Numbered from the stretch's first letter, positions 974 to 64,000 are shown. The stretch is DNA of 64,000 nt from Nannocystis bainbridge (GCF_028368995.1 NZ_JAQNDL010000004.1:512001-576000), one strand, 5' to 3'. Notes: generated by a model from the letters alone, not told the origin. Made by a program: numbers and translations.

Positions 974-3900
974 ATGTCGACCGCCACGGCCCATCCGCTT
1001 TCGTTCGACGCGCCGCCGCAGCCCGCGGCGCGCCCCGACGTGCGCGAGCGCCTGCAGGCGGCGCTGGAGCACGCGTCGCACTACTTGCCGGCCCAGGCGC
1101 CGCTCGAGGTGTTCGTCCACCACAACACGCTGCACGCGTTCCAGCACCTGCCGTTCCACGCGGCGATCCGCGAGGCCCAGACCAAGCTGCGGGTCCGCGG
1201 GTACCTGACCAAAGAGACATATCGTGAGTTGTTGGCGAGCGGACGGATCCGCGAGGACGACCTCGACGCGGTGCTGGCCGACGAGCGGTTCCCGGGCGAG
1301 CCGATCGCGCCCGGGTTCCCGAGCCGCGACGTCGCCGCGGCGCTGGTGATCCGCCACGGGGTCGGCGCCGAGACGATCGCCCACCTGCGCTGGAACCTGG
1401 TCGAGAAGGACGCGGCCAACCGGTTCGACGGCGACATCCGCCAGGGGCCGCGCGACGCGATCGTCCGCAGCACGCGGGCCTGGCTCGAGCAGGAGGTCGC
1501 GGCCGCCGGCGGGCCGGCGGGCGCGCGCGAGGTCGCGGCCAAGGTCGTGAGCCCGACGCCCGGCGAGCGCGCCCTCGATCCGCTGCGCAAGCTCGGCGCG
1601 CTGCTCGGCCGCCGCGTCGACCCACGCGACCTGATGGGGGCGTTCGCGTGCAACCCGGAGCTGTTCTCGGTGCGCGCGCTGTGGACCGCCTGCGTCCGCG
1701 CGTGCGAGCACCTCGAGGGCCAGCCGTGCCCGCAGGACACGCCGGCGGTGTTTCATCGCGACCTGCTGCTGCGCACCAGCGGCGAGGATCCGAACGACCT
1801 GGTCCACGCCCACCTGATCCCGCTGTGCGCGGCGTTCCTCGACCGCGGGCAGTCGTACTGGACGATGCCGGACCGCGAGCGCGGGTTCTTCCGCGCGTGG
1901 TCGAAGGTGCTGTCGTCGGGCCTCGGCGTGCGCCCGGCGTGGCTGGCGGGCCTCGGCGAGCGTCTGCGCGACTGGGACGCGCGCAAGCTCGGGGCCGAGG
2001 ACGTGGTGGTCGAGCTGCTGGCCGAGCTCGGGATCGCCGACGACGAGCTCGCGGCGTTCGTCGAGCACACGCTGCTGCAGCTGCCGGGGTGGGCGGGGAT
2101 GTTCCACCGGCTGGAGAGCGCGCCGGGGCCGATCGGTCGCACGCGCGCGCAGGTCCACTTGATCGACTACATGGCGGTGCGGCTGACGCTCGACCTGTTC
2201 GCGTACTGCGACGTCGGGGCGCGGCTCGGCCTGCGCGGCCAGGCCCGCGCGATCCGGGCGGCCTGCGCCGGGCTGCCGCAGATCTCGGGGCCGAAGCAGC
2301 GCGGCCGCCACGACACCTCGTGGCCGCTGTTCCGCCTGTGTCAGCTCGCGGGGGTGTCGGCGGCGACGATCTACGCGGCCAGCCGGGCCGACGTCGAGGC
2401 GGTGCTGGCGTTCCTCGACGAGCTCGACGAGCCGACCCGGCTGCGCGTGCTCCACGAGGCGTACGAGCGCCGCTACCGGGTCGAGCTGCTCGACGCGCTG
2501 GCGGCCAACCTGGCCGCGCCGCCGCCGGTGACGACGCGGCCGCGGCATCAGGTGGTGTTCTGCATCGACGATCGCTTCGAGTCGTCGCGCCGCCACCTCG
2601 AGGAGATCGCGCCCGAGTGCGAGACCCTCGGCGCGGCCGGGTTCTTCGGCCTGGCGATCGCGTACCAGGGCATCGACGATCCGAGCACGTTCCCGCTGTG
2701 CCCGGTGGTGGTCGAGCCGCAGCACCGGATCGAGGAGCAGGCGCTGACGCGGCAGTTCAGCATCGCCGAGCTGCGCGCGAGCCGGCGCCGCCAGCTGGGC
2801 GAGATCGAGACGGCGTGGGGCCGGATGTCGCGCTCGCTGCTGCTCGGCTCGATCGTCACCGCGGTCGCCGGGTTCTTCGCCGCGATCCCGCTGCTGGCGA
2901 GCGTGTTCTCGCCGCGCGCGGCCGGGCGGATGCGCAAGGCGATCGCGCGCTGGTGGCTGCCCGAGCCGATGACCCGGCTGACGGAGCTGCGCGCCGAGCA
3001 GGACGGGACGCGCACGGCGCAGGTGATGTCGGGCTTCACGCTCGACGAGATGGCGACCCGGGTGGCGTCGCTGCTCGAGAACATGGGGATCGTGCACCGG
3101 TTCGGGAAGCTGATCGTGGTGCTCGGCCACGACTCGTCGAGCGTCAACAACCCGTACTTCCCGGCCTACTCGTGCGGGGCGTGCGGCGGCCGCTCGGGCG
3201 GGCCCAACGCGCGGCTGTTCGCGCGCATGGCCAATCAGTCGGGGGTGCGCGAGCGACTGGCAGCGCGCGGGATCGAGGTGCCGGCCGACACGGTGTTCGT
3301 CGGCGGGCTCTACGACACCGCCAACGACATGATCCGCCTCTACGACGCCGAGGACCTGCCCGACGCGGCGCTGCTCGAGCTGCGGGTGCTGTCGCCGCAG
3401 CTCGAAGAGATGTGCCGCCGCAACGCGCACGAGCGCTGCCGCCGGTTCGCGGCGGCGCCGCGGCGGGCCTCGCCCGAGCGCGACCAGCGGCACGTCGAGG
3501 GCCGCGCGTTCGACCTGGCGCAGGCGCGCCCGGAGCTCGGCCACGCGACCAATGCGGCCTGCTTCGTCGGCCGGCGCCCGCTGACCGCGGGCCTGTTCCT
3601 CGACCGGCGGGCGTTCCTCGTCTCGTACGATCCGGAGCAAGATCCGAAGGGCGCGATCCTCGAGCGGATCTTGCTGGCCGTCGGCCCCGTCGGCGCCGGC
3701 ATCAACCTCGAGTATTTCTTCTCGACCGTCGACGCCGAGCGGCTCGGCGCCGGGACCAAGCTGCCGCACAACGTCACCGGCCTGTTCGGGGTCATGAACG
3801 GGGCCAGCAGCGACCTGCGGACCGGGCTGCCGCGGCAGATGACGGAGATCCACGAGCCGGTGCGGCTGCACCTGGTGGTCGAGGCGACGCCGGCGACGCT

Positions 3901-5554: not shown

Positions 5555-7023
5555 ACGCGTGGGTGCAGTACTCGCTGATCGTGCTGTGGCTGATGCCGCT
5601 GCTGGCCGCGGCGGCGCTGCGCTGGGGGGTGCGCGGGGCGAGCAAGCAGCGCGCGCTGGCGCTGGGGTTCGCGCTGCCGATCTTCGTGATCGCGTGCGCG
5701 CTGTTCGTCCACGAGGGCACGCGCCACGCGTACGCGGAGGATCACCTCGAGCAGGGTCTGGGCTGGTGGCACAGTCACTTCGCGATCGACGGGCTGAACG
5801 CGGTGCTGCTGCCGCTGACGGCCGGGCTGACGCTGGTGGCGCTGCTGATGACGCCGCGCGCCGACATGCGCGCGGGGCTGGCGGCCAAGATCATGGTGGT
5901 CGAGGGGGCGCTGATGGGCAGCTTCCTCGCGCTCGACGCGGGGGTGCTGTCAGGCTTCGTGGTGCTGTCGCTGCTGCCGCTGTGGTTCGACGCCAGGCAC
6001 CGCGGGTCGCGGCCGCTGCAGGTGATCCTGAAGTCGCTGGTGGTGGCGACGGGGCTGGCGCTGACGGTGGCGATGGTCGGGCTGGCGCTCGAGGCGTCGG
6101 CGGCGGGGGTGCAAAACCCGCTGGACCTGGTGGCGCTGGCCAAGAGCACGTACACGCCGTCGCCGTGGATCGGGACGCTGGTCCTGGCGGTGGCGCTGCT
6201 GCGCATGGGGATCGTGCCGCTGCACCTGTGGTTCCCGGCGACGGCGCAGCACAGCACGCCGCACCTGGCCCTCGTGACATGTTTGACGCCGCTCGGGTCG
6301 TTCATGCTGGCCCGCCTGGCGCTGGCGATCTTCCCGCGGGTGTTCGGACCGGCGGCGCCGCTGCTGATGGCGCTGGGGGTGGTCACTGCGCTGTACGGGG
6401 CGTTCCTGGCGCTGGGACAGTTCGACCTGCGCCGGATCGTGGCGTGGTTCTGGGTCAGCCAGTCCGGGCTGGTGCTGGCAGGCTTCGCAGGGCTCGACGA
6501 CGCGAGCGTGTCCGGGGCGCTGCTGCAGGCGATGTCGACGGTGGTGGAGTGCGGGGGGCTGATGCTGCTGACGCTGGCGGTGGAGGTGCGGGCGAACACG
6601 ACGGACCTGCGCAAGCTCGGGGGGCTGGCCCACAATGCGCCGCGGATGGCGACGGCGTACCTGATCCTGGCAGCCGCGGCGGTGGGGTTCCCGGGGACGA
6701 TCTCGTTCGTGGCGGAGGACCTGGTCGGGCAAGGGCTGCTGCGCGAGCACCCGTTCGTGGTGGGGCTGCTGTTCATCGTGACGGCGGTGAACGGGATCAC
6801 GCTGTGGCGGGCGTTCAAGCGCACGTTCCTGGGGCCGCCGTCGCCGCACGCGGACGATCTGCGCGGGTTCGAGGATCTGCGGCAGTGGGAGACGTATGCG
6901 ATCGCGGGGATGATCGGGACGCTGCTGCTCGGGGGGTTCCTGCCGGAGCCGCTGCTGGCGGTGCGGCGCGGGGTAGTCGATGCGATTGGGCGTATCGAGG
7001 CGCCGGTGGTCGACGGGCATTGA
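5551..7023 (+). CDS. NuoM/MrpD-like proton-conducting membrane subunit
   Basis: ATG overlaps the upstream stop (ATGA) and follows an AGGAGG RBS; IDGLN, RMGIVPLHLWFP, LGGLAHNAP, GFPGTISFVAEDL motifs; multiple TM segments. Confidence 0.85.
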   Translation: MNAWVQYSLIVLWLMPLLAAAALRWGVRGASKQRALALGFALPIFVIACALFVHEGTRHAYAEDHLEQGLGWWHSHFAIDGLNAVLLPLTAGLTLVALLMTPRADMRAGLAAKIMVVEGALMGSFLALDAGVLSGFVVLSLLPLWFDARHRGSRPLQVILKSLVVATGLALTVAMVGLALEASAAGVQNPLDLVALAKSTYTPSPWIGTLVLAVALLRMGIVPLHLWFPATAQHSTPHLALVTCLTPLGSFMLARLALAIFPRVFGPAAPLLMALGVVTALYGAFLALGQFDLRRIVAWFWVSQSGLVLAGFAGLDDASVSGALLQAMSTVVECGGLMLLTLAVEVRANTTDLRKLGGLAHNAPRMATAYLILAAAAVGFPGTISFVAEDLVGQGLLREHPFVVGLLFIVTAVNGITLWRAFKRTFLGPPSPHADDLRGFEDLRQWETYAIAGMIGTLLLGGFLPEPLLAVRRGVVDAIGRIEAPVVDGH

Positions 7024-7596: not shown

Positions 7597-10509
7597 TCAG
7601 GCGTCGGGGCGTTTGGCGGCGAGATCGGCGATGAAGGCTTCGATCTCGGCTTCGCAGGCGATCTGCGGCGAGCGGGATGGGTCGAAGGGGGGCAGTTCGG
7701 GCGGGGGCAGGCCGAGGGCGGCGAGTAGGCGAGTGCACAGGCGCAGCTCGTCGAACCAGGCGAACGGGGGGCCGTCGGCCCAGGCTTCGCGGTAGGCTTC
7801 GAGGGCCAGCGGGCGGGCGAGGTCGGGTTCGCCGAGGGCGAGGTGGGCTTCGGCGAGGGGGCGGTCGGCGGCGTCGTGGGCGTCGGCGAGGAACCGGCGG
7901 GCTTCGGCGGGGCGGCCGAGGTGGGCGAGGCAGGTGGCGAGGCGGGCGCGGTAGCCGGCGTGGGTGGCGCCCATGCGGCGCGCGAGCCGGAGGGCCTCGT
8001 TCAGGTGGGGCTCGGCGTCGGCGTAGGCGCCGGCAGCCATGGCGATGCGGGCGAGGAGCGCGTGCAGCTGGGCGGTGTCGAAGACGCGAGGGGTCCGTTC
8101 GAGCTCGCGCCAGGCGGCCGCGAGCCACGGCGCCGGATCGTCGCCGCGGTAGATCGCGAGCTCGATGCGGTTGCGGGTGAGGGTGAGGCGGTCGTTGGTG
8201 TCGAGCTCGCCGTCGTCGATCGCGGCGAGGTCGGCCTCGGCGTCGTGCCATCGTCCGAGCTCGATGGCGAGGCGGGCGCGGTGGCGCAGCGGGAGGGCCT
8301 GCTTGCCGCCGGCAGCGACGGCGAGGCGGTGGGCGAGGTCGAAGGTCCGCAGGGCCGCGTGGGTGTGGTCCTCGGCCTCGATCGAGAGGGCCCAGTTGAC
8401 GAGGCTGACGACCACGGCGTCGGGGTTGCGGCGTCGGAGGTTGATGCGGATGCTGAGCTCGCGCAGGGCCTCGGCGTCGCGGTCGCGCCCGACGAGCGCG
8501 AGCGCGTTGGAGAGGAGGGTGATCGCCACGCTCTGGCCCCAGGGGTCGGACAGCGCGGGCGGCTCGCGCAGGCCGCGGGTGAAGAGGGGGGTCAGCAGCT
8601 CGACGATGGTGGCGAAGGCCGAGAGGCGCTCGTCGAGCGGAGCGCTCAGACGGTCGTAGTACAGCTCGAAGGCGGCGTAGAAGTCGCCGGCGCCGATGAG
8701 CGCGCTGTAGATCTCGATGGTGCGCTGGAGGTCGGCGAGGCTGCGGACGCTGGCCTTGGGCTCGGGTGGGAGCTGCTCGAAGTGATCGCGGATCGCCTCG
8801 AAGGCGGCGGTGCGATCGGGGCCGGCGAGGCGCTCGAAGGCGTGGGCGCGGATGACCGGGTGGAGGTCGTGGCGGTTGCTGCCGCGGTCCCAGTGCAGGA
8901 AGCCGCGGGCCTCGAGCAGGCACAGGTCGGCGTGGACGCCGGCGTAGTGGGCGAGGACGCCGGGCAGGCGAGCGTAGGTGCCGGCGAGCGCGTGATAGAC
9001 GTCCCAGGCGTCTCGGCGGGCGCGGAGCTCGTCGTGGCGGTCCTGCAGATAGGTGAGGGTGCCCGGCGAGGTCTCGTCGGCGAGGGCGCGCTCGAGCTGG
9101 CGCAGCGGCGCGAGGGGCTGCGGAGGCGGGCGTCGCAGGCCGAGCGGGGGCGGATCGGCGAGGGCGAGCACGGTGTCGATGCCGACCGGCGCGCGCAGGG
9201 CGGCGATCCGCGACAGCAGCCGGGCGGCGCGGGCCGGCAAGAGCTCGAAGGCGGTGTCGAGGATGTGCGCGCGCAAGACGGCGGGCGCCTCGTGGGCGCG
9301 GCCGCTGATGGTCGTGGGCCGGGCGTAGTCGTGCATGCAGCCGGCGAGCAGGCGCCACAGCAGGCTGGAGTGGCCGAGCTTCGCCATCGTCTGCGTGGTC
9401 GAGTCGACCCACCACGCTTCGGGGTCGAGCCCGTGCGCGCGCAACAGGCCGGGGATGTCGGCGGGATCGAGGCCCTGGGCCGCGGAGAGCTCGACGCCGG
9501 GGACCAGCGCTTCACCGTCGCGCAGGTCGCTCGGGAAGATCCGCGAGGTCGCCAGCAGCCGCGACGGGCTGGCCTGGACCAGCGCGCGCAGGAACCTGCC
9601 ATCGCGCGGGTCGGTGCAGGCGTGAAGGTCGAGGGCGGCGTCGGCGACATCGTCCGGCAGGCGCGCGGCGTCGAGGCGGTGGTAGGCGACGAGGGCTCGC
9701 TCGAGGCCGTCGAGCACGAGCAGGAACGGGCGCGCCTGCAGGGCGGCGAGGATCCGCTGCTCGAGGGCGGGTCGGTCGGCGCGCAGGGCGTCGAGCGGCG
9801 CCATGCCGGTGGCGTAGATCGCAAGGTGGCGGATCAGGGCGTCGAAGTCGGCGCCGCCCTCGTAGAAGCTCCACCACAGGCAACCAGCCCAGGGCGCGTC
9901 GACGAGCCGCCGCTGCAGCCAGGCCCAGGCGAGGGCGCTCTTGCCGACGCCGCCGAGAGCGACGAGGACCCGCGCCGGCTGGCCATGCGCGAGCCAGAGG
10001 TCGAGCTCCGCGAGGTCGGCGGTGCGGCCGGTGAAGACGCGCGATTGAAAGTAGGGGTGGACGAGGTAGGGGGCCGGTAGCGGCGGCGGAGCGGGGAGAT
10101 GGGCGTCGAGGGCGGTGGTGGTGGCGTCGCCTTTGGCGGCGTCGTCCTCGTCCTCGTCCTCGTCATCGTCCTCGACGTCGTCATTGCCATCGTCATCATC
10201 ATCCTCATCGCCGGCATCCTCATCGACGTCGCCGACGTCATCGACGTCGGCATCCTCGCTGCTCTCTGCAGGCAAACCGAGCAGGCGCAGTTCGGCGTAG
10301 GCGGCGGGGCCGATGTTCGCGCCCTCCGGGAGGCGCAGGTCGGCGGGGCCGGGGTCATTGCCGATGCGGACGACCAGCGCGGTCTCGGCATCCTCGGTCT
10401 CTTCGGATATGTCGCATGGGACATGTCCTGCGCGCCATGCGGCGTCGAAGACGGCGGTATGGGCGGGTTCGGGGGCGAAGACGACGACGCGTCGGGGCGG
10501 CATCGCCAC
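7597..10509 (-). CDS. STAND-class (NB-ARC/AAA-like) NTPase with C-terminal TPR-like repeats and an N-terminal acidic tract
   Basis: FTGRTADL, Walker A ALGGVGKS, WWSFYE, Walker B FLLVLDGLE, LLATSR, DLHPVIR (MHD-like); helical repeats follow; long D/E run near the N-terminus. Confidence 0.8.
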   Translation of the reverse strand: MAMPPRRVVVFAPEPAHTAVFDAAWRAGHVPCDISEETEDAETALVVRIGNDPGPADLRLPEGANIGPAAYAELRLLGLPAESSEDADVDDVGDVDEDAGDEDDDDDGNDDVEDDDEDEDEDDAAKGDATTTALDAHLPAPPPLPAPYLVHPYFQSRVFTGRTADLAELDLWLAHGQPARVLVALGGVGKSALAWAWLQRRLVDAPWAGCLWWSFYEGGADFDALIRHLAIYATGMAPLDALRADRPALEQRILAALQARPFLLVLDGLERALVAYHRLDAARLPDDVADAALDLHACTDPRDGRFLRALVQASPSRLLATSRIFPSDLRDGEALVPGVELSAAQGLDPADIPGLLRAHGLDPEAWWVDSTTQTMAKLGHSSLLWRLLAGCMHDYARPTTISGRAHEAPAVLRAHILDTAFELLPARAARLLSRIAALRAPVGIDTVLALADPPPLGLRRPPPQPLAPLRQLERALADETSPGTLTYLQDRHDELRARRDAWDVYHALAGTYARLPGVLAHYAGVHADLCLLEARGFLHWDRGSNRHDLHPVIRAHAFERLAGPDRTAAFEAIRDHFEQLPPEPKASVRSLADLQRTIEIYSALIGAGDFYAAFELYYDRLSAPLDERLSAFATIVELLTPLFTRGLREPPALSDPWGQSVAITLLSNALALVGRDRDAEALRELSIRINLRRRNPDAVVVSLVNWALSIEAEDHTHAALRTFDLAHRLAVAAGGKQALPLRHRARLAIELGRWHDAEADLAAIDDGELDTNDRLTLTRNRIELAIYRGDDPAPWLAAAWRELERTPRVFDTAQLHALLARIAMAAGAYADAEPHLNEALRLARRMGATHAGYRARLATCLAHLGRPAEARRFLADAHDAADRPLAEAHLALGEPDLARPLALEAYREAWADGPPFAWFDELRLCTRLLAALGLPPPELPPFDPSRSPQIACEAEIEAFIADLAAKRPDA

Positions 10510-11006: not shown

Positions 11007-15250
<4,244 letters not shown>

Positions 15251-15613: not shown

Positions 15614-17164
<1,551 letters not shown>

Positions 17165-17186
17165 GCGGCACGGCTGTACCTCGGGA

Positions 17187-17260
17187 CATGTCCCTGGCGG
17201 CATGTCCCGAGCGACATGGGCTCGAGGGCATGTCGCTTGGAGCATGTCCTCGAGGACAGG
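17187..17260. repeat. 14-bp-phased array (5 units) at a convergent junction
   Basis: CATG at 17187, 17201, 17215, 17229, 17243 and CAGG at 17257. Confidence 0.92.
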
Positions 17261-17303: not shown

Positions 17304-19127
17304 TCAGGCGCGGGGGTTGACGAGGGCGCTGGCGAGGGCGTCGCCGAGGGCCTCGATGTGCTCGCCGGCCAGCGCCGGGACCAGGGTCGCCGGGGCGGCG
17401 GAGAAGATGACGCTGGCGCCGCGGGCGACCAGGCCGCGGGCGGCTTCCTGGACGGTCTCGGCGGTGGTCGGCTCGACGCCGGTGACGCCGGTGAAGTCGA
17501 CGATCAGCGTGCGTGGGCCGGGGGGCACGTCGGCGGTGGCCTCGAGCAGCTGCTGGGCGCGGGCGTCGTCGAGCGCGCCGGTCACCGGGATGACCGCGAG
17601 CTCGTCGATGATCGCCAGCACCGGCACGGCGCGGCGGGCCAGCAGGCCGCCCTGGCGCTCGAGCAGGACGTCGCGGCCCTCGAGCCGGTGGCGCTCGGCG
17701 CGGGCGTCCTCCGAGGTGTCGAGCAGGACGCCGACGGCCTTGCCGGCGACGCCCGCGAGCGGGGCGGCGAACACGGCCAGGGCCGGCTCGCCGACAAGGT
17801 CGCGGCGCAACTCGGCGCCGGCGCCGAGAGCCTCGGCGAGGGCGGCGGCGACCGGGAGGTGGGCGCCACCGGTCAGGCCGAGGGCGGTCCAGCGCGCATT
17901 GCCCTGCAGATCCTCGCCGGCGCCGATCACCGCCGCGACGGGCACGGCCTCGAGATCGTGGGGAGCAGCGGCGGCGGCCTCGGCGAGCAGCGCCCGGCCG
18001 GCCAGGCTGACCGCGGCGGGGCCCGCCAGCGCGACGTAGAGGCGGCGCAGGGCGGTCGGCAGCGGGCGCGGCGACGACCAGCCGAGCTCGAGCAGGGCGA
18101 CCTCACGCCCGCCCCAGGCCAGCGGCAGCAGCAGGGTGGCGCCGTGGGTGGCGCCGTCGGGACCCGTGGGCTCGGCCTGGCGGGGGGTCGGCGCGCCGGG
18201 CTCGATCTCGGACGGGGTGTCCGATCGGACCTGTTCGAACAGCCATGGCTCGTTGGGCCTGGCGAACAGGCCAGCCAGGTCGGCGAGCGGGCGCGTGGCC
18301 GGACCGGGGCCGGCGCGCAGCACCAGGTGGGTCGGGTCGGCGGGGTCGCGCAGCCACAGCGCGGCGGTCGAGGCGTCGATCGCCTGGGCCGGCTCGGCCA
18401 GCGCGGCCAGCGTCTCCTCGAGGTCAGCGGACTCGGTCAGCGCCAGCGCGGCCACGTACATCGTGTTGGCTTCGTCGATGGCGCGCTGGTGGTCGCGCAG
18501 GGCGTCGCGGGCGACCAGCAGCGAGGCGACGGCGGCGCCGAGCATGTCGTAGACGAGCCGCTCGCGCGGGCTCGGGATGTGGACGATCCGCCACGACAGC
18601 ACCAGCACACCGGGCCAGCGCGCCTCGGGGCCGCCGGTGGTGAGCGGCAGGACGACCAGGGCCTGGGCGCTGCGCTCGCTCGGGTGCGCGGCGGGGCGCG
18701 GGTCGGCCGAGAGGTCGTGCACCACCAGCGCTTGCCGCGGCGCCGCCAGCCAGCGCGCCAGCACCGGGTGGTCGGCGAGCGCGAACGGCCGCCCGAGCAG
18801 CGGGTCGGTGGCCGGGCAGATGCCGGCCTGCCACACGCTCGAGAGCTCGGCGTGGGTCGGCACGCTGGCGTCGGTCTGGGCCGGGCGCGGGCCGCTGCGG
18901 TCGATGAAGCGCGGGTCGTGCGAGCCGAGGTCGCCGGGGTCGTCGCGCAAAGTGTAGAGGCGGATCAGCGACGGGCCGTAGCTGCCGACCGCCGAGGCGA
19001 CGGCGCGCAGGACGGCGTCGTCGGTGTCGGCTTCGACGAGGGCGAGCAGGGCCCGGGCGAAGGTCGTGGCCAGTTCCACGCCCTGAGGGCCGTGGAAACC
19101 TGCTTCGGCGCGCGGGTCTGGGATCAT
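17304..19127 (-). CDS. GAF-domain(s) plus degenerate STAS (RsbR-like) protein
   Basis: ALVVLPL...WPGVLVLSW GAF-like segments; C-terminal VPVLAIIDELAVIPVTGALDDARA...LIVDFTGV; start uncertain. Confidence 0.7.
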   Translation of the reverse strand: MIPDPRAEAGFHGPQGVELATTFARALLALVEADTDDAVLRAVASAVGSYGPSLIRLYTLRDDPGDLGSHDPRFIDRSGPRPAQTDASVPTHAELSSVWQAGICPATDPLLGRPFALADHPVLARWLAAPRQALVVHDLSADPRPAAHPSERSAQALVVLPLTTGGPEARWPGVLVLSWRIVHIPSPRERLVYDMLGAAVASLLVARDALRDHQRAIDEANTMYVAALALTESADLEETLAALAEPAQAIDASTAALWLRDPADPTHLVLRAGPGPATRPLADLAGLFARPNEPWLFEQVRSDTPSEIEPGAPTPRQAEPTGPDGATHGATLLLPLAWGGREVALLELGWSSPRPLPTALRRLYVALAGPAAVSLAGRALLAEAAAAAPHDLEAVPVAAVIGAGEDLQGNARWTALGLTGGAHLPVAAALAEALGAGAELRRDLVGEPALAVFAAPLAGVAGKAVGVLLDTSEDARAERHRLEGRDVLLERQGGLLARRAVPVLAIIDELAVIPVTGALDDARAQQLLEATADVPPGPRTLIVDFTGVTGVEPTTAETVQEAARGLVARGASVIFSAAPATLVPALAGEHIEALGDALASALVNPRA

Positions 19128-20281: not shown

Positions 20282-20283
20282 GG

Positions 20284-45541: not shown

Positions 45542-47113
45542 TCAGAGCGCCTGCGCGGCGATCCAGCGGAACACGCCGGGCCCGGTGCCGCGCATCAGCT
45601 CGGGGTCGGGCTCGAGCGCGTCGATGCGCGCCAGCTCGCCGGTCACCGAGAGCACGTACAGGTTGCGCGGGGCCGACGGCGGCAGCAGCAGCTCGACGCT
45701 GAAGCCCTGGTCGTCGCGGCTGTGGAGCAGCAGGTCGCCGTCGTCGTCGATCGCCAGCGCCCACATCGGCACGCCCTGGAACCGCTCCATGCCCGCCGAC
45801 GACACGCGGACGATCTCCCCCGCCGTCACCCCGCCGACGTCCTGCGTGTCGCTGGCGCACGTCCAGGCGACGAAGCGGGCGTTCGGCGAGGCCACCGGCG
45901 GCTGGCCGCCGACGCATGGGCTCTGCTCCGCGCTCAGCAGCTCGAGCCGGTCGGCGTCGACGCGCAGCGCGGCCCCGCGGACCGTCACGAACAGCAGCGC
46001 GCGGCCGTCGGCGCTGACGCGGGTGAACAGCTCGCCGGTGTCGCCGATCAGCGGCCGGCCGTCGTGCTCGCCGGTCGTGTGGTCGTAGCGGCGGATCGCC
46101 AGGCCGTCACGGAACACGTAGTGGCGGGGCGAGACGGCGGCGACCAGGCGCGAAGGGTCGGCCCACGCGGGGGCGTCGCCCGGGACCGCGCAGGCGACCC
46201 CGGGCTCGTCGACGGCCCAGCGCCACACGCGGCAGAGGCCGTCGGCGCCGCCCAGGCTCAGCGCGCCGCCGTCGGGGTCGACCACGCCGAGGCCGCAGCT
46301 CGGGCCCGGGCCGGCGCAGCGGGCCCGCTGCAGCCGCGCGAGCGGGGCGTCGGGCAGGCGGGCCGCGCCCAGCTCGGTCAACGCGGGCGCGGCGTCGTAG
46401 CCCTCGGCTGGCCTCGGGTACCTGATTGCAAGGACATGTCCTTTGGGACCTGGCCGTAAGAACCCGTCCTCGGGGACACCTTGCACGGCGAACAGCACCG
46501 GGGCGTCGGCGGCGCCCACGACCCCCCAGACCTCGGCGCAGCCGGCCGGCAGCGGCCACGCGAGCGGCACGATCGCGGCCGGATCGCCGGCGCTGGTGGT
46601 GGCGACCCGGGGCGACAGCGGCACCAGCTGCAGCGCGGCCGGGCAGCCGGCGGTCCACCACAGCGCGCCGCCGGCGGGGGCGAAGCCGGTGGCGTCAGGG
46701 GCCAGGCGGGCGGGCAGGGCGAGCGGCAGGGTGCGCGCGCCGACGAGGTCGACGAAGCCGGCGCGCAGCGTGCCGAAGCTGTCCCCGAGTTCATGTTGCC
46801 AGCCGCCGTCGCCGGCGCGGATAAGGGCGCCCTGACCGCGCGGATCGAGCTCGACCACGAGGGGCTGCGCGTCGGCCTCGGGGCCCGGTTCGGCGGGCAA
46901 GAGCTCGCGGAAGGCGAGGTCGCCGGCGTCGTAGATCGTCAGGGTCCGGGCCCCCTCCTTGCCGCGCTGCGACGCGATCCACACCGCGCGCGCGTCGACC
47001 GTGGGCGGGCCGCACGCGACGAGGCCAACGACGGTCAGGACGGTCAGGATCGCCGCGCCCGCGCGAGCGCGAAGGCCCGCGGGCGGGCGCGGGGGCGTCG
47101 CTTGTGACTTCAC
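45542..47113 (-). CDS. Hypothetical lipoprotein, possibly a beta-propeller
   Basis: GTG after a GGGGGA RBS; LTVVGLVAC lipobox; LDPRG, VSADGR and ASPNARFVAW blade-like segments. Confidence 0.65.
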   Translation of the reverse strand: MKSQATPPRPPAGLRARAGAAILTVLTVVGLVACGPPTVDARAVWIASQRGKEGARTLTIYDAGDLAFRELLPAEPGPEADAQPLVVELDPRGQGALIRAGDGGWQHELGDSFGTLRAGFVDLVGARTLPLALPARLAPDATGFAPAGGALWWTAGCPAALQLVPLSPRVATTSAGDPAAIVPLAWPLPAGCAEVWGVVGAADAPVLFAVQGVPEDGFLRPGPKGHVLAIRYPRPAEGYDAAPALTELGAARLPDAPLARLQRARCAGPGPSCGLGVVDPDGGALSLGGADGLCRVWRWAVDEPGVACAVPGDAPAWADPSRLVAAVSPRHYVFRDGLAIRRYDHTTGEHDGRPLIGDTGELFTRVSADGRALLFVTVRGAALRVDADRLELLSAEQSPCVGGQPPVASPNARFVAWTCASDTQDVGGVTAGEIVRVSSAGMERFQGVPMWALAIDDDGDLLLHSRDDQGFSVELLLPPSAPRNLYVLSVTGELARIDALEPDPELMRGTGPGVFRWIAAQAL

Positions 47114-51856: not shown

Positions 51857-53332
51857 TCAGGCGACGGCCTGGTAGTCGCGCAGGTCGAGCTGACGGGTGC
51901 GGAGCCAGTAGCTGACCGTAAAGCCAGGCCACAGCGCGGCGGCCCGACCATCGGCGGTCTGATACCAGCTCTTGCAGCCCGAAGACCACACCGTGCGGCC
52001 GAGCTGCTCGTAGAGCTCGCTGGCGAAGGCACTCTGGACCTCGGGGCGGACGTCGAGGGTCCGCAGGCCGCGGTCGCGGAGCGCCAGGATGCACTGCAGC
52101 GCGTAGCGGACCTGGGCCTCGATCATGAAGATCATCGAGTTGTGGCCGAGACCGGTGCCGGGGCCCATGAGCAGGTAGAGGTTGGGGAAGCCCGCGACGG
52201 TGATCCCGAGGTAGGTCTCGGGCTTGCCGCGCCAGTGGGCGTTGAGCTCGTGGCCGTCGGCGCCGACGATTGTGATGGCCGAGAGATAATCGGTGGCACG
52301 GAAGCCAGTGCCGAGGACGATGGCGTCGACCTCGCGCAGCACGCCGTCGCTGGTGCGCACGCCGGTCGGCTCGATGCGCTCGATCGCATCGGTCACCAGC
52401 TCGACGTTGGGCCGCGTCAGCGCCGGGTAGAAATCGTCGGAGATCAGGACGCGCTTGCAGCCCATGCGGTAGTCGGGCCGCAGGCGGGCGCGCAGGGCCG
52501 GATCGGCGATCTGGCGCGCGAGGTGCCGGCGCGCCAGCGGCTCGACCAGGCGCATGATCGCGGGCCGCATGAAGGCCAGCGCGCGCGCCTCGTGCTGCCA
52601 GTAGAGGCCGCTCCGCACCAGCCGCTGCAGGGCCGGCGCGCGGGCGTAGACGCGGCGCGCCAGCGGGCCGATCGGGTGGTCGGGCTTGGGCACGATCCAC
52701 GCGGGGGTGCGCTGGAACAGGTGCAGCCGCTGCACCTTCGGGGCGATCTGCGGCACGAACTGGATCGCGCTGGCGCCGGTGCCGATGACGGCGACTGTCT
52801 TTTGAGACATGTCGTAGCCGTGGTCCCAGCGGGCCGAGTGGAAGGTCTTGCCGGCGAAGCTGTCGAGCCCCGGCAGCTCGGGGTAAGCGGGCAGGTGGAG
52901 GGCTCCGTTGCCGAGCACGAGGGCGCGGGCGCTGTACTGCTCGCCTGCTTTGGTGCGCACGCGCCAGCGGCCGGCGGCGCGGTCGAACGCGGCGTGCTCG
53001 ACCTCGGCGCCGAAGCGGATGTGGCGGCGGACGTCGTACTTGTCGGCGCAGCGCTCGAGGTAGGCCTGGATCTCCGCCTGCAGCGGGAAGGCGCGGGTCC
53101 ACGCCGGGTTCTGCTCGAACGAGAACGAGTAGAGGTGCGAGGGGATGTCGCAGGCGGCCCCGGGATAGGTGTTGTCGCGCCAGGTGCCGCCGACGCTCGT
53201 GGCCTTCTCGAGCACGACGAAATCGGTGACGCCGACGCGGCGCAGCTGGATAGCCATGCACAGGCCGGAGAAGCCGGCGCCGACGATCACCACGTCGACG
53301 TCGCGGGAGGTGCTCGCAGCGAGTTCGGTCAT
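51857..53332 (-). CDS. Baeyer-Villiger-type flavin monooxygenase
   Basis: GAGFSG, GGTWRDNTYPG, FAGKTFHSARWD (FxGxxxHxxxWD), GTGASA, GTGF. Confidence 0.93.
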   Translation of the reverse strand: MTELAASTSRDVDVVIVGAGFSGLCMAIQLRRVGVTDFVVLEKATSVGGTWRDNTYPGAACDIPSHLYSFSFEQNPAWTRAFPLQAEIQAYLERCADKYDVRRHIRFGAEVEHAAFDRAAGRWRVRTKAGEQYSARALVLGNGALHLPAYPELPGLDSFAGKTFHSARWDHGYDMSQKTVAVIGTGASAIQFVPQIAPKVQRLHLFQRTPAWIVPKPDHPIGPLARRVYARAPALQRLVRSGLYWQHEARALAFMRPAIMRLVEPLARRHLARQIADPALRARLRPDYRMGCKRVLISDDFYPALTRPNVELVTDAIERIEPTGVRTSDGVLREVDAIVLGTGFRATDYLSAITIVGADGHELNAHWRGKPETYLGITVAGFPNLYLLMGPGTGLGHNSMIFMIEAQVRYALQCILALRDRGLRTLDVRPEVQSAFASELYEQLGRTVWSSGCKSWYQTADGRAAALWPGFTVSYWLRTRQLDLRDYQAVA

Positions 53333-54985: not shown

Positions 54986-56893
54986 TCATGCGCCCGGCGA
55001 GTACCAGATCGGGCTGGTCCAGGCGCGCTCCTGGATGGTGCGCGGGACGGTCGGGTCGCTGCACGCGGGCGGGCGGGCGTCCTCGGCGAGGCCGAGGCAG
55101 TCGCGCCAGCTCCAGCGGCACACCGGGTCCTCGATCACGCGCACGTAATAAAAGGCGGGGCGCGCCGGGTCGAATTCGGGGTCGCGCCAGACCCCGCACA
55201 GGAGGGCCGCGCCGCGCTGCTCGGCGGCGCAGGTGGCCTCGTCGACGCTCGAGCCGTCGGGTCCGCCGGCGACGTCGATCACCGCGATCTGGCCGACGCC
55301 GTCCTCGTCTTGCCAGCCCTTGATCACCTGGATCCGCTCGAGCCGCGACCCGGGCGCGCCGGCGCTGCCGGGGTCCATCTGCGCGCTGACGGCGATGACC
55401 GGGCCCGACGTACCTGTCCTTTCAGGCAGGATCGCCCCCATCGGCACGCCGCGAGCGTCGGCGGCCGCGACGAAGTCGCCGGCGCCGCACAGATCTTCGG
55501 GCAGGCCCCAGCCGCCGAACACCCGCACGGCCATGCGCGGGCCGCTGGTGCCGTAGACCTCGCGGCGGCGGAGCGCGTCCCAGATCGACTCGCGGCTGTT
55601 CTCCTCGGCCCACACCGCGACCAGGCCGCCGGGGCTGTTGCGCGCGCCCGCGGGCACGTTGCCGGTGAGGCGGGTGACGGGGTCGCTCTCGCGGGCGCCG
55701 AAGTGGCCGGGGTAGGTCGCCTCCTCGACGTTGCCGGGCGTGCCGTTGTGGGTGTCGGTGCTGGCGATGACGCCGAGGCGGAACGGGTTGACGCCGAGGC
55801 GCTGCTCGGCGCCGAGGCCGGCGAGCAGGATCCCGCGCAGGAAATCGAGGCGCGACACGCAGCCGCGGCCGACCATGCCCTGGCTGCCGGTGCCGTCGCC
55901 GCAGTCGTCGAACGGCAGCACGCGCAGCTTCTCGAAGTCGCACAGCTCGTCGGGCGGGCCGAGGCCGACGACCCCGCGCGAGCACTCCGAGTCGCCCTTG
56001 TGCTGGTAGATCTCGAGCAGCGGCTCGAGGTCGGCGCGGACCTCGGCGAGCTCGGTCTCGTCGGCGCCGGCGGGCAACTCGGGCGTGAACAGGTTGCCGT
56101 TCGACCAGTTGCTGTTGTGCGGGATCGCCAGCACGTCGCAGCCCTCGCGGCCCTCGCGGCACTCGCCCTGCAGCCGCTGCCACAGCTCGCCGGCGGTCGG
56201 CGCCTCGAAGTGCGTGACCGGCAGCGCGGGTACGCGGCTCGAGCGGAAGATGACGTTGCGGTGGAGGTTCGACAGCATGCGCGAGCCCGACCACTCGTAG
56301 GCGACGAAGCTGGTGAAGCGGCAGGCGGCGGAGCGGTCGTAGGCGGCCTCGGCGGCCTCCTGCACGCGCTTCCACACCGCCCCGGCCCGCGCCTCGCAGT
56401 CGAGCCCGCCCTTGCCGCACAGGTCGTCCCAGCGGGTCGCGTCGTCGCCGTCGAGGCCGAGGCCGAAGTTGACGAGCGCCGCGGTGGTGCCGGCGCGGAA
56501 GTCCTGGCAGCGGTCGCTGTCGTAGACGGCCGAGCCCGGGGTGGTGCAGCCCTCGACCTCGGCCAGGTATTCGGCGTGATCGGTGACGGCGGCGAAGTCG
56601 AGCGGGCGCGCGAGCTTCATGCCGGCGACCTGCTCGCCGCGGGCGAACCGGTAGGCGCCGGCCGGATCGGTGCGCACGTCGTTGATCCAGGCGTCGAACG
56701 AGTAGGCGGTGTGGACGTGGAGATCGCCGAAGTAGAGGTTGCGCTGCGGGTTGCGGTCGCTGCACGCCTCGCGGCGGTCGACGAACGGCTCCGGCTCGGG
56801 GCGACAGGCGAGCTGACCCATCAGGCATGTCGTCAGAGACATGGCCGAAACGACAGGGCGAAGAGAACAGGTTCGATGGGACAGGCCGGTCAT
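54986..56893 (-). CDS. DUF3604 domain protein (PHP-like metal-dependent hydrolase), probable lipoprotein
   Basis: YFGDLHVHTAYSFDA, PLDFAAVTDHAE, YEWS, NLHRNVIF, IPHNSN.SNG, EIYQHKGDSE, STDTH, YGTSGPR, QERAWTSPIWY; start uncertain. Confidence 0.9.
   Translation of the reverse strand: MTGLSHRTCSLRPVVSAMSLTTCLMGQLACRPEPEPFVDRREACSDRNPQRNLYFGDLHVHTAYSFDAWINDVRTDPAGAYRFARGEQVAGMKLARPLDFAAVTDHAEYLAEVEGCTTPGSAVYDSDRCQDFRAGTTAALVNFGLGLDGDDATRWDDLCGKGGLDCEARAGAVWKRVQEAAEAAYDRSAACRFTSFVAYEWSGSRMLSNLHRNVIFRSSRVPALPVTHFEAPTAGELWQRLQGECREGREGCDVLAIPHNSNWSNGNLFTPELPAGADETELAEVRADLEPLLEIYQHKGDSECSRGVVGLGPPDELCDFEKLRVLPFDDCGDGTGSQGMVGRGCVSRLDFLRGILLAGLGAEQRLGVNPFRLGVIASTDTHNGTPGNVEEATYPGHFGARESDPVTRLTGNVPAGARNSPGGLVAVWAEENSRESIWDALRRREVYGTSGPRMAVRVFGGWGLPEDLCGAGDFVAAADARGVPMGAILPERTGTSGPVIAVSAQMDPGSAGAPGSRLERIQVIKGWQDEDGVGQIAVIDVAGGPDGSSVDEATCAAEQRGAALLCGVWRDPEFDPARPAFYYVRVIEDPVCRWSWRDCLGLAEDARPPACSDPTVPRTIQERAWTSPIWYSPGA
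56812..56885. repeat. 14-bp-phased array (5 units) in the DUF3604 5' region
   Basis: Tetramers at 56812, 56826, 56840, 56854, 56868 and 56882. Confidence 0.8.
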
Positions 56894-58074
56894 GCGGGGC
56901 TCCAGAAGGCGAGGACGCGCTCGATGGTCCAGGCGACGGCGACGGCGCCGAGGGCGAGGGCCGGGAGGGCGCGCAGCGGGGCGCGCGCGCGGGTCGGCAG
57001 GCGAGCGAGGCCGGCGCGGGCGAGGGCGGCGAGGGCGAGCACGACGGCGGCGACCAGCAACTGGCCGAGCTCGACGCCGGCGTTGAAGGCCAGCAGCGCC
57101 GGCACGGCGGCCCCCTGCGGCAGGCCGATCTCGGCCAGCGCGCCGGCGAAGCCGAGGCCGTGGAGCAGCCCGCAGGCGCCGGCGAGGCGCCAGGCGGCGC
57201 CGGTCGAGGGCTTCTCGCCGAGGGCGAGGGCGCGGGCCAACAGCACCAGCGAGACGGCGATGCAGGCCTCGACGGGCGCCTGCGGCAGCGCGAGCAGGCC
57301 GAGCGCCGCGAGCGCGAGGGTGAGGCTGTGGGCCGCCGTGAAGGCCGTGAGGGCGCCAGCGAGCCGCAGCGCCGGGCGCACGAGCAGCGTGAGGCCGGCG
57401 ACGAACAGCAGGTGATCGGCGCCGCCGAGGATGTGCTCGACGCCGAGGGCGAGGTAGCCGGGCGGCGGGCCGGGGCTCGGGTCGAGCGGGGCGGTGGTTT
57501 GACCTGGCCGGAGGACCATGGTCTGAAGGCCAGCCTCGGGGCGGCGCAGGTGGACGATCAGCTCGCCGCGCGCGAGGCCGGTGACGCCGAGCTCGCCGCG
57601 CAGGCCGTCGGGACCGCAGTTGGCGCGCAGGCGGCCGGGCGGGGCGGGCGAGGGCCGACAGTGCGGCGGGAGCTCGACGCGCAGGGCCTGGAGGTCGGGC
57701 TCGGGCGGGAGCTCGAGGCGGCCCTGGACGCGGCCGTCGGCGGCCTGCTCGAGCACGAGCACGGCCGGGCGGAACTCGTGGGCGCGGGCAACCGAGGCGT
57801 GGAGCAGCAGCGGCGCGGCGATGATCGCGGCGAGTGCTTTTGAGCCCGCCGCGGGCGGCGTCGGACGCGAGATCGAGGTGGCCGAAAGGACAGGTAATTC
57901 AGAAAGTTTCGCAGGGATCGCGGGCTGCGGCGCCGCGCACCGGGTCCGAGCGGAGGTTGAGATGGCCGAAGGGACAGGTAGGCCTCCGGGAGCGGTGCCT
58001 GCGAGCCGCGACGGGCGGGCGAGCGCCATGTCCGAAGGGACATGTGATGCGCCCGGTATGACTTCGGCGGTCAC
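56890..58074 (-). CDS. HupE/UreJ-like membrane protein with a periplasmic N-domain
   Basis: ARAHEFRP, YLALGVEHILGGADHLLF, AFTAAHSLTL, VEACIAVS, GLLHGLGFA, FNAGVELGQ; start uncertain (GTG 58074 is coupled to the upstream stop). Confidence 0.88.
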   Translation of the reverse strand: MTAEVIPGASHVPSDMALARPSRLAGTAPGGLPVPSAISTSARTRCAAPQPAIPAKLSELPVLSATSISRPTPPAAGSKALAAIIAAPLLLHASVARAHEFRPAVLVLEQAADGRVQGRLELPPEPDLQALRVELPPHCRPSPAPPGRLRANCGPDGLRGELGVTGLARGELIVHLRRPEAGLQTMVLRPGQTTAPLDPSPGPPPGYLALGVEHILGGADHLLFVAGLTLLVRPALRLAGALTAFTAAHSLTLALAALGLLALPQAPVEACIAVSLVLLARALALGEKPSTGAAWRLAGACGLLHGLGFAGALAEIGLPQGAAVPALLAFNAGVELGQLLVAAVVLALAALARAGLARLPTRARAPLRALPALALGAVAVAWTIERVLAFWSPA

Positions 58075-62604: not shown

Positions 62605-64000
62605 ATGCACCATGTGAAGCGGTTGGGATGGATGGTCGCGGTCGTGGCCGCGTGTGGAGATTCGAGCGCCAGCACCGATGCTCTGCTGGAGACGACGACA
62701 TCGACATCGACATCGACCACGACGATGACGACGGACCCGGCGACCACGGACGAGCCGGGCACGACCGTCGCGCCGACGACGACGGACCCGACAACGACCT
62801 CGACTTCGACTTCGACCTCGACGACAGAGCCGGGTACGACGACGTCATCGACGACGGAGCCGGATACGACGACGACCTCCTCGACGACGGAGTCGGACAC
62901 GACGACGACGACGACGGACACGACGACGGACACGACGACCGGGACCGACACGAGCACTTCGACGACGACCGGGACCGACGATGACGCCGACGACGACGGC
63001 GTGGCGGACGCGGACGACAACTGCGTCGACGTCGCCAACGCGGGCCAGGAGGACGGCGACGAGGACGGGGCCGGCGACGCGTGTGACAACTGTGCCGGCG
63101 ATCCGAACCCCGATCAGGGCGACGGGGACGGGGACGGAGTCGGCGACCTTTGCGACGAGGAGGCGATCAACAACGGCGACGTGCTCTACGTGCCCGAGGG
63201 GACATCGATCGATCTCGGCGGGTCGCACTGCTACGGGCTGTGGGTGAAGATCGACGGCACGGTCACGGTGCCGGCGTACGCGAACAACCCGAACACCGGC
63301 ACGTTGACGCTCAAGTCGCAGACGATCCGGATCGGCGCGACCGGCAAGATCGTGGCCGACAACGCGGGCATGGCCGGCGGCACGCCGTCGCAGCAGAACA
63401 CGGTCGGCGGGTTCGCCGGGCAGGGCGTGGGTGCGGGCTGCGGCGGCGGTCCGGGCAGCTCGGTCGGGCAAGGCGGCTCGGGCGCGGGCTACGGCGGCGT
63501 CGGCGGCGCGCCCGGGAACACCTACGCGATGAACAACGCCTGCAACAGCTGCAGCGAGCCGACCATCTCGCACTGCGGCGGCGCGGTCGGCACGGTCGTC
63601 GGCACCGACATGGGCGAGGACGTGGCGCTCGGCGTCGGCGGCGGCGCGGGCGGCAACTCGAGCGGCTGCAGCAACGCCGGCGGTCGCGGCGGTCGCGGCG
63701 GCGGCTCGGTGCTGCTGCTGGCCAACGACTGGGTGCAGGTCGACGGCTCGGTGAGCGCGCGCGGCGAGGAGCCCCCGCCCGACAATTCGGCGTGCGGTTA
63801 TCGACCCGGGGGCGGCGGCGGCTCGGGCGGCGGCATCGTCGTCGCCGCGGACGAGGTGCTCGGCGCGGGCACGCTCGACGCCCGCGGCGGCAACGGCGGA
63901 CCGGCGCTCGGCGAGACGCAGAGCCAGACGTGGGCGTGGGGCGGCGGCGGCGGCGGCGGCGGCCGGATCAAGGTGTTCTCGCCGGCCGACGCGTTCAGCG
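62605..64000 (+). CDS. Thr-rich lipoprotein with thrombospondin type-3-like repeats and a Gly-rich domain (3'-truncated)
   Basis: MHHVKRLGWMVAVVAAC lipobox; Thr tract; DADDDGVADADDNC...NAGQEDGDEDGAGDACDNC; GGGSGGG segments; open to the window end, so it is absent from the ORF track. Confidence 0.85.
   Translation, partial: MHHVKRLGWMVAVVAACGDSSASTDALLETTTSTSTSTTTMTTDPATTDEPGTTVAPTTTDPTTTSTSTSTSTTEPGTTTSSTTEPDTTTTSSTTESDTTTTTTDTTTDTTTGTDTSTSTTTGTDDDADDDGVADADDNCVDVANAGQEDGDEDGAGDACDNCAGDPNPDQGDGDGDGVGDLCDEEAINNGDVLYVPEGTSIDLGGSHCYGLWVKIDGTVTVPAYANNPNTGTLTLKSQTIRIGATGKIVADNAGMAGGTPSQQNTVGGFAGQGVGAGCGGGPGSSVGQGGSGAGYGGVGGAPGNTYAMNNACNSCSEPTISHCGGAVGTVVGTDMGEDVALGVGGGAGGNSSGCSNAGGRGGRGGGSVLLLANDWVQVDGSVSARGEEPPPDNSACGYRPGGGGGSGGGIVVAADEVLGAGTLDARGGNGGPALGETQSQTWAWGGGGGGGGRIKVFSPADAFS

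Follow-up and report, generated by a model that had tools for sequence, protein, structure and literature searches.

An interrupted palindrome of the genus Nannocystis, stacked behind genes and made within genes by substitution

With DNA words of the HIP1 and uptake type, a signal spread over the whole genome can be seen to compete with the protein code, which is rare. The function of HIP1, the contiguous octamer palindrome (GCGATCGC) of cyanobacteria, has been under debate for three decades. According to PMC5861425, HIP1 occurs up to about once per gene, is 15- to 300-fold over-represented and is conserved within open reading frames (ORFs) beyond the same codons elsewhere, and is argued there to be under selection; a role in DNA uptake was proposed recently (PMC13756078), and the function is presented as still debated (PMC5861425; PMC13756078). 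Uptake sequences, namely the uptake signal sequences (USS) of the Pasteurellaceae and the DNA uptake sequences (DUS) of Neisseria, occur in thousands of copies, many of them in genes, and accumulate by substitution. Within genes they show a bias of reading frame and tend to sit where residues and genes are poorly conserved (PMC2817400). The repetitive extragenic palindromes (REP) and bacterial interspersed mosaic elements (BIME) of enterobacteria and pseudomonads are longer imperfect hairpins, extragenic by definition, which cluster behind genes and between convergent genes. Here we describe an interrupted palindrome, TGYCC-N4-GGRCA, that recurs within and behind the genes of a 64,000-nucleotide stretch of Nannocystis bainbridge (NZ_JAQNDL010000004.1:512001-576000; the window, meaning this whole stretch) and of the genome from which it comes. 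A preliminary description of the window had reported the word, in another register, as overwritten into coding sequences about once per gene with rare codons.

In its behaviour within genes this word appears closest to HIP1 and to the uptake sequences, by analogy and not by membership, since the word, its interrupted form, the phylum, the roughly 20-fold density at gene ends and the phased arrays all differ. Like HIP1 (PMC5861425) it is a short, hyper-abundant palindrome found in genes at orthologous sites conserved beyond their codons, the counterpart here being a 5.6- to 46-fold excess over shuffled genes together with conserved rare codons. HIP1, however, is a contiguous octamer of cyanobacteria, whereas the present word is an interrupted 5+4+5 palindrome of a myxobacterium-like host with 71.5% GC and, unlike HIP1, is about 20 times denser behind genes than within them, in strictly phased arrays. 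HIP1 also holds the sites of two known methyltransferases, whereas the source genome (90.5% complete) has no match to the C5 DNA methyltransferase family PF00145, found in 9 of 14 control genomes by a search that did not extend to the N6 and N4 families or other classes. Uptake sequences are asymmetric and oriented, whereas the word here is two-fold symmetric with no strand preference in its N4 spacer; pairs of uptake sequences behind genes can act as terminators, and uptake sequences are not known to form phased 14-bp arrays. As for REPs, which share with the present word the clustering behind genes and between convergent genes, their extragenic position sets them apart from a word of which 4693 of 11572 units of at least 10 bits (see below) lie within called genes, 3570 of them at least 150 nt from both gene ends, and whose unit is 14 bp long and held in exact register. 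REPs are tied to REP-associated tyrosine transposases (RAYT), and the Y1 transposase family to which these belong (PF01797) gave no match in the 90.5%-complete genome, the control search being positive in 6 of 14 genomes. A full-text search of a limited literature collection found no description of this element in Nannocystis.

Occurring in another phylum, the word provides a second, independent case, with handles beyond those of HIP1: a long, specific interrupted palindrome that should ease the fishing out of a reader, a clear home behind genes, phased arrays, and sister species with gains and losses in progress. New here are a comparison of in-gene counts with protein-preserving shuffles, proof from motif-free orthologues that units arise by substitution, a record of gains and losses, the frame and codon costs, and the symmetry tests.

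The word, its register and its distribution

The source genome comprises 11.05 Mb in five contigs. Units were scored with a matrix built from array-internal units, with at least 10 bits as the main line and at least 12 bits for strong units, and the matrix describes a two-fold symmetric palindrome of 14 letters in which the outermost TG...CA is the best-conserved part. The spacer is fixed: TG[TC]CC-N4-GG[AG]CA has 2828 copies genome-wide (1969 of them isolated), against 23-93 at spacers of 0-3 or 5-8 nt. The distance between units is fixed too, the seed word recurring 2135 times at exactly 14 nt, against 17 times at 13 and 20 times at 15, with additional peaks at 28, 42 and 56 nt. Arrays consist of the interrupted palindrome stacked head-to-tail, CATG being the junction between one unit and the next. 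The contiguous palindrome GGRCATGYCC, considered as the unit, was rejected, the spacer count favouring the interrupted form. In the GGRCATGYCC register single in-gene units are just 1.1-1.7 times above synonymous shuffles, in-phase doublets number 993 vs 68 and triplets 376 vs 7.6, and about six of the places in the preliminary description are convincing. With the shifted matrix, 10012 units of at least 10 bits were found in the genome against 1439 in a reversed-genome control, a palindromic word far above expectation genome-wide, as with HIP1.

The excess holds within genes after protein sequence and codon usage are accounted for. Genes were called with a codon-likelihood caller and are not a curated annotation (7990 genes, 84% coding); for the genome-wide test, 7418 genes of at least 400 nt were trimmed by 60 nt at each end and shuffled synonymously three times. 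Observed and shuffled counts were 5810 and 2332 at 8 bits or more, 4098 and 733 at 10, 2681 and 201 at 12, 1436 and 54 at 14, and 474 and 10 at 16. In the 41 genes tested in the window there are 33 units of at least 10 bits, against 4.1 ± 1.9 (maximum 10) in 200 synonymous shuffles, and 22 of at least 12 bits against 1.15. A comparison with codon-shuffled controls had been proposed in the preliminary description, and its result, in window and genome alike, is a count far above the shuffles. The 14-bp spacing reported inside coding sequences proves exact: 454 pairs of in-gene units are 14 nt apart, none 13 and one 15. Single units nevertheless make up 2708 of the 3116 in-gene runs (87%), with 372 double, 28 triple and 8 longer.

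All 20 places listed earlier hold real units once the register is corrected, each pair of coordinates bracketing one unit that starts 2 nt past the listed position, and 24 of these 27 units reach 10 bits. The frequency of about one unit per gene stands only roughly, and only for the window, where 34 of the 98 units of at least 10 bits lie in called genes (about half of the genes carrying at least one) and two more in a minus-strand gene, 45542-47197, absent from the called set; genome-wide the mean at the 10-bit line is 0.55 units per gene, with a unit of at least 12 bits in 1608 of 7418 genes (22%).

The main concentration is not in genes but behind them. Gaps between convergent genes carry 10.8 units/kb, tandem gaps 3.45 and divergent gaps 1.28, against about 0.5 in genes, the density behind genes being some 20-fold higher than within them. 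At least one unit is present in 831 of 1304 convergent, 1218 of 3639 tandem and 344 of 1438 divergent regions, or 2.2, 0.86 and 0.44 units per region, respectively. Extragenic arrays with the 14-bp period are evident in the window both with Tandem Repeats Finder and by direct reading, for example at 17182-17251, 20279-20334 and 54889-54944. Genome-wide, extragenic runs of four to nine units number 166, 229, 124, 15, 3 and 1, with a peak at five.

The perfect two-unit pattern is present in 10 of 11 genomes of the genus, the exception being a genome that is 64% complete, and in none of 10 genomes outside it, two of which belong to the same family; a reversed control likewise gave none.

Three further observations concern this distribution. 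The lengths of extragenic runs fall off abruptly after about six units (229 runs have five, 124 six and 15 seven), a limit at some 70-84 bp that may come from a reader or from the mode of array growth. Where a unit or array follows the stop codon, the density of in-gene units is lowest 100-300 nt before that codon (0.19-0.29/kb), compared with 0.34-0.41/kb in genes with no unit or array following, and it reaches about 0.8/kb from 800 nt inward; this hints at spacing between sites, in a comparison confounded with gene length. Finally, slow accumulation of the word after lateral transfer was considered and found no support from two proxies, both weak: segments present in at least three copies (29 segments, 77 kb) carry 1.08 units/kb, equal to the genome mean and with no depletion, nor is there depletion in genes with the lowest GC content at third codon positions (GC3), which roughly stand for recently arrived DNA (0.52/kb vs 0.28-0.63 in the other classes).

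Origin by substitution and maintenance within genes

The word has a cost in codons. Among codons wholly inside units of at least 12 bits, 31.8% end in A or T (n = 12,318), against 5.8% of about 3.0 million codons outside, and codons with less than a 10% share of their synonymous family make up 30.2% against 5.1%, which confirms the rare, A/T-ending codons noted in the preliminary description. The three reading frames are used unequally (329 for the frame TGT CCn ..., 1174 and 1178 for the others), with the Cys-Pro-x-Gly frame depleted, and this inequality implies that the protein filters where the word can sit. The protein neighbourhood of units is slightly less conserved (0.646 vs 0.702 invariant columns, n = 31, p = 0.03), and runs in the window lie at interdomain linkers: two in RecQ, one at the TonB Plug-barrel junction and one at the 3HCDH-ECH junction. 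Unit density is lowest in the top GC3 quarter of genes (0.28/kb vs 0.49-0.63 in other classes). Units are local rare-codon patches with stable stems inside genes; they disturb codon-based gene finding, the score of the codon caller dipping there, and codon optimisation of Nannocystis biosynthetic genes for heterologous expression would erase them. A rare-codon pause, slowing translation at domain borders, was rejected as the main cause, as it would not demand one specific palindrome.

To compare orthologues, the syntenic region was taken from four genomes of the same clade (G010, G001, G005 and G003; 7-13% nucleotide divergence), giving 38 codon alignments with the source genome (G000), and more distant orthologues were added for five genes. 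In the Baeyer-Villiger monooxygenase (BVMO) gene, at alignment column 523, the clade of the source genome encodes DMSQKT (aca TGTCTCAAAAGACA gtc) adjoining the conserved VAVIGTG motif, where the motif-free orthologues of G008 and G011 have DLTGRD and DLRGRT with no gap. The preliminary description had judged from normal-looking motif spacing that this site seemed to have arisen by substitution, and had suggested alignment with motif-free orthologues; such alignment gives substitution at this site and equally at a second BVMO unit (column 1412, three synonymous changes and one replacement), in the DUF3604 gene (column 1468), at two units of the HAD-ECH gene (columns 1156 and 1184), all of them gap-free, and in ThiC. 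At ThiC column 198 the peptide GPQGH is unchanged while its spelling moves from GGG CCG CAG GGT CAC in G000 (3.0 bits) through intermediate spellings in G010 and G003 to GGT CCT CAA GGA CAT in G001 and G005 (13.4 bits), five consecutive synonymous rare codons. At ThiC column 1298, within the conserved GPGHVPM core, G003 gained TGTTCCGATGAACA (14.6 bits) where G000 and G009 keep CGTGCCGATGCACA. A lone 14-nt insertion would shift the reading frame, which already contradicts mobile-element insertion for single units, and with 87% of in-gene runs being single, insertion is excluded for the bulk of them. The in-gene units owe their origin to substitution, and the price is paid in rare codons and altered residues.

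All five close species have both RecQ runs; the sister clade of the genus has neither, and its linkers differ in length by just 3-12 nt. The HAD-ECH unit at column 1156 (25770-25783 in the window) is shared by the five close species and G008, the latter with another N4 (TGCTCCAAAAGACA), and is absent in G009, a member of the same sister clade as G008; either an old unit was lost once or units were gained in parallel at the same spot.

Once made, units are conserved. At A/T-ending four-fold sites of G000, 72 of 85 comparisons with the other four species show the identical base in stems, against 311 of 1159 outside (odds ratio 15), the figures for G/C-ending sites being 142 of 150 and 28061 of 33849, with the reservation that these comparisons are not independent across related species. 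The conservation at stem sites is large and its direction is opposite to the codon preference, which is against A/T-ending codons. There are 51 gap-free site columns in which one or more species score at least 10 bits, and in 22 of these all five do; the means over 20 column-permuted matrices were 11.7 such columns and 1.9 conserved ones, and for the reversed matrix there were 3 columns, none of them conserved. Like HIP1, the word is therefore conserved across species beyond the same codons elsewhere, here in one 64-kb region of five related species, and in-gene units are held at the DNA level. A genome-wide, selected or mutationally driven signal comparable to HIP1 or uptake sequences, as proposed earlier, is supported by the genome-wide range of the word, its persistence at synonymous sites and its excess over shuffles.

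Conservation is accompanied by turnover. On the tree (G003,(G000,(G001,(G010,G005)))), parsimony gives 6 terminal gains and 8 terminal losses, all without indels. The direction is ambiguous for 6 units present in G003 only and 3 absent from G003 only, and 3 units show other patterns; two rows of the parsimony table stem from a 3-nt alignment shift and are not real events. Gains are often stepwise and mostly protein-changing: residue differences average 2.2, and just 3 of the 26 events are silent.

A possible reader of the word and competing explanations

Several features bear on whether the word acts as duplex DNA or as a hairpin. In 2410 units from gaps between same-strand genes, oriented by transcription, the N4 spacers and their complements are similarly frequent (CGAA 112 and TTCG 102, CTCG 99 and CGAG 94, CTTC 97 and GAAG 74), with no preference for the transcribed strand. 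The composition of N4 is mirror-symmetric, with C preferred at position 1 and G at position 4, which in a hairpin would leave a loop of an impossible 2 nt. Units within genes show a symmetric preference over three flanking positions on each side (R-C-C/A ... G/T-G-Y); complementarity of these flanks in 1846 isolated in-gene units shows no excess over independent half-sites (1015 vs 1007, 661 vs 777 and 601 vs 677). Covariation within the in-gene stem is mixed (39 vs 38 expected for T-A at pair 4-11, 62 vs 81 at pair 5-10). Judged from such symmetry in the sequences, a two-fold reader of duplex DNA would fit better than a selected hairpin.

Beyond the enrichment, phase, codon cost, substitution origin, synonymous-site conservation and genus restriction, which are directly observed, we infer a protein reader of double-stranded DNA and a purpose for it. 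The reading of the whole as a genus-wide interrupted palindrome, made in genes by substitution, under constraint at the DNA level and read as double-stranded DNA by a dimeric protein, seems to us somewhat probable. The main home of the word is the DNA directly behind genes, with units stacked head-to-tail in the 14-bp register. In-gene copies arise in place, by synonymous changes to rare A/T-ending codons and by tolerated replacements, favouring linkers and less conserved stretches, and are then held by constraint on the DNA word and not on the protein. Under the proposed reading, a putative two-fold symmetric (dimeric), sequence-specific protein would read the word, the gene-end arrays being its high-occupancy sites and the in-gene units extra chromosomal sites. 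As to purpose, we favour a possible chromosome-level role at the ends of transcription units, for example in topology or nucleoid organisation. A bolder form of this proposal, offered tentatively and with more doubt than conviction, is that an undescribed dimeric protein, specific to the genus, uses the word as its address throughout the chromosome and polymerises behind genes in the 14-bp register (42 bp for three units, which is four helical turns). Selection for a minimum density of sites would then, by way of rare codons and tolerated replacements, add to genes a second, non-protein layer of information. If the reader did belong to a DNA-uptake or self-recognition machine, the word would be an uptake or self signal beyond the Pasteurellaceae, the Neisseriaceae and (as proposed) the cyanobacteria.

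Some observations weigh against the dimeric reader and the constraint assigned to it. Mirrored stem positions do covary modestly, C-G at pair 3-12 outside genes being found 354 times against about 221 expected. A palindrome gives the same hairpin on either strand, and arrays fold at -63.5 and -48.5 kcal/mol (z = -8.0 and -6.9). Conservation was measured in a single 64-kb region in related species, and synonymous-site conservation fits purifying selection and motif-directed repair or drive alike. The gene set consists of our own codon-likelihood calls in place of a curated annotation. Linkers such as those of RecQ and the ThiC tail are rich in indels, and substitution and replacement are indistinguishable there. 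Lastly, the argument for reading by a dimeric protein is one from symmetry.

Molecular drive of the uptake-sequence type, in which alleles preferred by a DNA-uptake or recombination machine spread by transformation and units pile up at tolerant positions without benefit, would account for part of the pattern and is in our view unlikely. The frame bias (329/1174/1178) and the placement in poorly conserved neighbourhoods (0.646 vs 0.702) match what is described of uptake sequences (PMC2817400), the graded improvement across species at ThiC column 198 and at column 401 of gene 47198 would be expected of such a process, and HIP1 too has recently been proposed as an uptake signal (PMC13756078). However, known uptake sequences are asymmetric words, unlike this palindrome, and are not known to form arrays of 4-6 phased units behind genes, and the genes of lowest GC3 are not depleted in units.

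A shade less likely again is a hairpin in RNA or single-stranded DNA, with arrays serving as bidirectional terminators or 3'-protecting stems and in-gene units as mRNA hairpins affecting stability or the pace of translation. The number of units per region tracks gene 3' ends (2.2, 0.86 and 0.44 for convergent, tandem and divergent regions), strong stems are predicted for arrays, which fold far better than shuffles (a third array has z = -7.3 beside the two above), and single in-gene units, folded together with their flanks, form stems at -9.8 and -13.7 kcal/mol. Of the 538 arrays, 150 were compared with loop-shuffled versions, and the real ones were 1.9 kcal/mol more stable (98/150 lower, p = 4e-8); as loop shuffling costs no more than this on average, array stability comes mostly from the palindromic cores. 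Dyad symmetry of whole arrays was rejected on the same figure, even though two arrays are near-perfect long hairpins. Against the hairpin stand the N4 spacers with no transcribed-strand preference and the impossible 2-nt loop, the in-gene flanks without pairing covariation, the mixed stem covariation and the outermost TG...CA as the most conserved part, unusual for a stem, in which inner and outer pairs count alike. No T run, as in intrinsic terminators, follows the three arrays that were read individually.

Neutral motif-directed repair of the very-short-patch type, whereby an enzyme corrects near-matches and the word persists without function, is improbable. Gains by small steps from near-matches and the presence of both gains and losses are compatible with it, and persistence at synonymous sites would also follow from continual correction. 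It leaves unexplained, however, the 20-fold concentration at gene ends and the exact phasing, most gains change the protein, and a search of the 90.5%-complete source genome found no Vsr endonuclease (PF03852; controls 3 of 14 genomes), nor the C5 methyltransferase mentioned above.

In-frame insertion of mobile array DNA (REP-like, BIME-like or resembling miniature inverted-repeat transposable elements) is very improbable, for although three- and four-unit runs do lie in interdomain linkers (RecQ, HAD-ECH, TonB receptor) and the RecQ linker exceeds that of orthologues outside the genus by 11-17 residues, most in-gene runs are single units that would shift the frame, multiples of three units are not over-represented among run lengths, six of six units in cleanly alignable sequence are gap-free against motif-free orthologues, RecQ linkers of the unit-free sister clade are of nearly the same length, and no RAYT-type transposase was found in the 90.5%-complete genome.

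Units in the window and neighbouring features

The units considered one by one are as follows (bits are matrix scores; species are the five close ones).

1206..1219, dabA: unit TGACCAAAGAGACA, 12.6 bits, kept in 5 of 5 species, within the DabA envelope of Pfam
6266..6279, NuoM-like gene: weak unit, 8.2 bits, below 10 bits in 4 of 5 species
10410..10423, TPR/STAND-like gene: 14.7 bits, 86 nt from the called start, too few orthologues to align
12143..12156, sulfatase gene: 12.9 bits
12894..12907, sulfatase gene: 11.6 bits, kept in 5 of 5 species
13562..13575, thiC, C-terminal tail: 15.6 bits, past the ThiC domain (residues 85-505)
17175..17258, extragenic reference array: six units, beginning right after the stop codon of gene 15614-17164
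18218..18245, GAF-STAS gene: two in-phase units, 11.3 and 11.5 bits, both kept in 5 of 5 species
23978..24005, TonB-dependent receptor: two in-phase units, 16.1 and 14.4 bits, between the Plug and barrel domains
24475..24488, TonB receptor gene, near the 5' end: 17.3 bits, kept in 5 of 5 species
25134..25147, end of the ECH domain: 11.4 bits
25742..25783, 3HCDH-ECH linker: three in-phase units, 14.4, 9.2 (at 25756) and 15.0 bits, gap-free against motif-free G009 and G011
30056..30069, gene 29457-30245: 11.3 bits
30895..30908, gene 30573-31661: 13.4 bits
31029..31042, gene 30573-31661: 15.9 bits
34947..35002, RecQ linker between RQC and HRDC: four-unit in-phase run
35881..35922, RecQ linker between DEAD and Helicase_C: three-unit run
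37784: unit
38411..38424, gene 38148-39788: 16.8 bits
39518..39531, gene 38148-39788: 15.2 bits
40764: unit
43019: unit
46423..46450, minus-strand gene 45542-47197: two in-phase units, 11.8 and 13.5 bits
49978..49991, gene 49472-51292: 10.3 bits, in G000 only, a terminal gain through one substitution
51913..51926, BVMO gene, near the 3' end: 10.2 bits; the unit compared with G008 at column 1412 above
52796..52809, BVMO gene: 16.1 bits, encoding MSQKT directly ahead of the VAVIGTG motif
55415..55428, DUF3604 domain: 15.4 bits, gap-free against G009 and G011
57505..57532, HupE gene: two in-phase units, 7.2 and 10.4 bits
58305..58332, N-terminal part of ORF 58080-59861: two in-phase units (58305 and 58319), 13.7 and 15.2 bits
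59103..59116, PARG catalytic domain: 11.2 bits
63191..63204, gene 62725-64140: 13.5 bits

Ten of these entries, at 12143, 25134, 30056, 34947-35002, 35881, 37784, 40764, 43019, 49978 and 51913, are additions to the preliminary description. Pfam backs 12 of the 16 window proteins that were scanned, and lends no support to two labels used earlier, "protease" (gene 38148-39788) and "PPIase" (ORF 58080-59861). The units at 10410, 24475 and 58305/58319 lie 86-240 nt from called starts. In the last case the stretch has no Pfam family and is unaligned in 3 of 4 orthologues, which makes its coding status doubtful; going by the sequence, the two units may lie upstream of the true start.

The minus-strand gene 45542-47197, which contains the sites placed at 46421-46449 in the preliminary description, has a coding log-likelihood of 196.9 and a GC3 of 0.93. 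It was dropped by the codon caller because its open frame runs on antisense through the next gene. Three other ORFs scanned nearby, each in a different frame from this gene, have no Pfam family.

In the gap between this gene and the convergent gene 44941-45345 (plus strand) lies a higher-order repeat (45363-45523) of three copies with two units each, at steps of 68 and 58 nt (TGTCTGAAGGGACA TGGCCGCGAGGTCA TGTCCCTT...). Directly behind gene 30573-31661, a tandem repeat with a period of 36 nt (31755-31853, 2.7 copies) carries one unit per copy (31766, 31803 and 31839), so that units are spaced there by 36-37 nt and not by 14. Another tandem repeat, of 22 nt (36765-36842, 3.5 copies, 94% matches; GGCGCGAGCGCGGCGGGGGCCT), lies between recQ and gene 36965-37804 and is unrelated to the palindrome.

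In the segment 890-7023 the DabA gene (PF10070, E = 2.8e-236) precedes a pair of genes, the latter of which has a proton-antiporter M domain, and the segment looks like a DAB-type inorganic carbon uptake locus. The closest named relatives of the RecQ protein, at 59-64% identity, bear the labels Gemmatimonadetes, Latescibacterota, Thermoleophilia, Methylomirabilota, Nannocystaceae and Sandaracinaceae, a mixture of phyla that suggests either transfer of this type of recQ or mislabelled metagenome bins. Within gene 15614-17164, a 96-nt (32-residue) tandem repeat of 4.6 copies, rich in Cys, Asp and Asn codons, spans 15916-16351 and presumably encodes a cysteine-rich repeat domain typical of myxobacterial secreted proteins.

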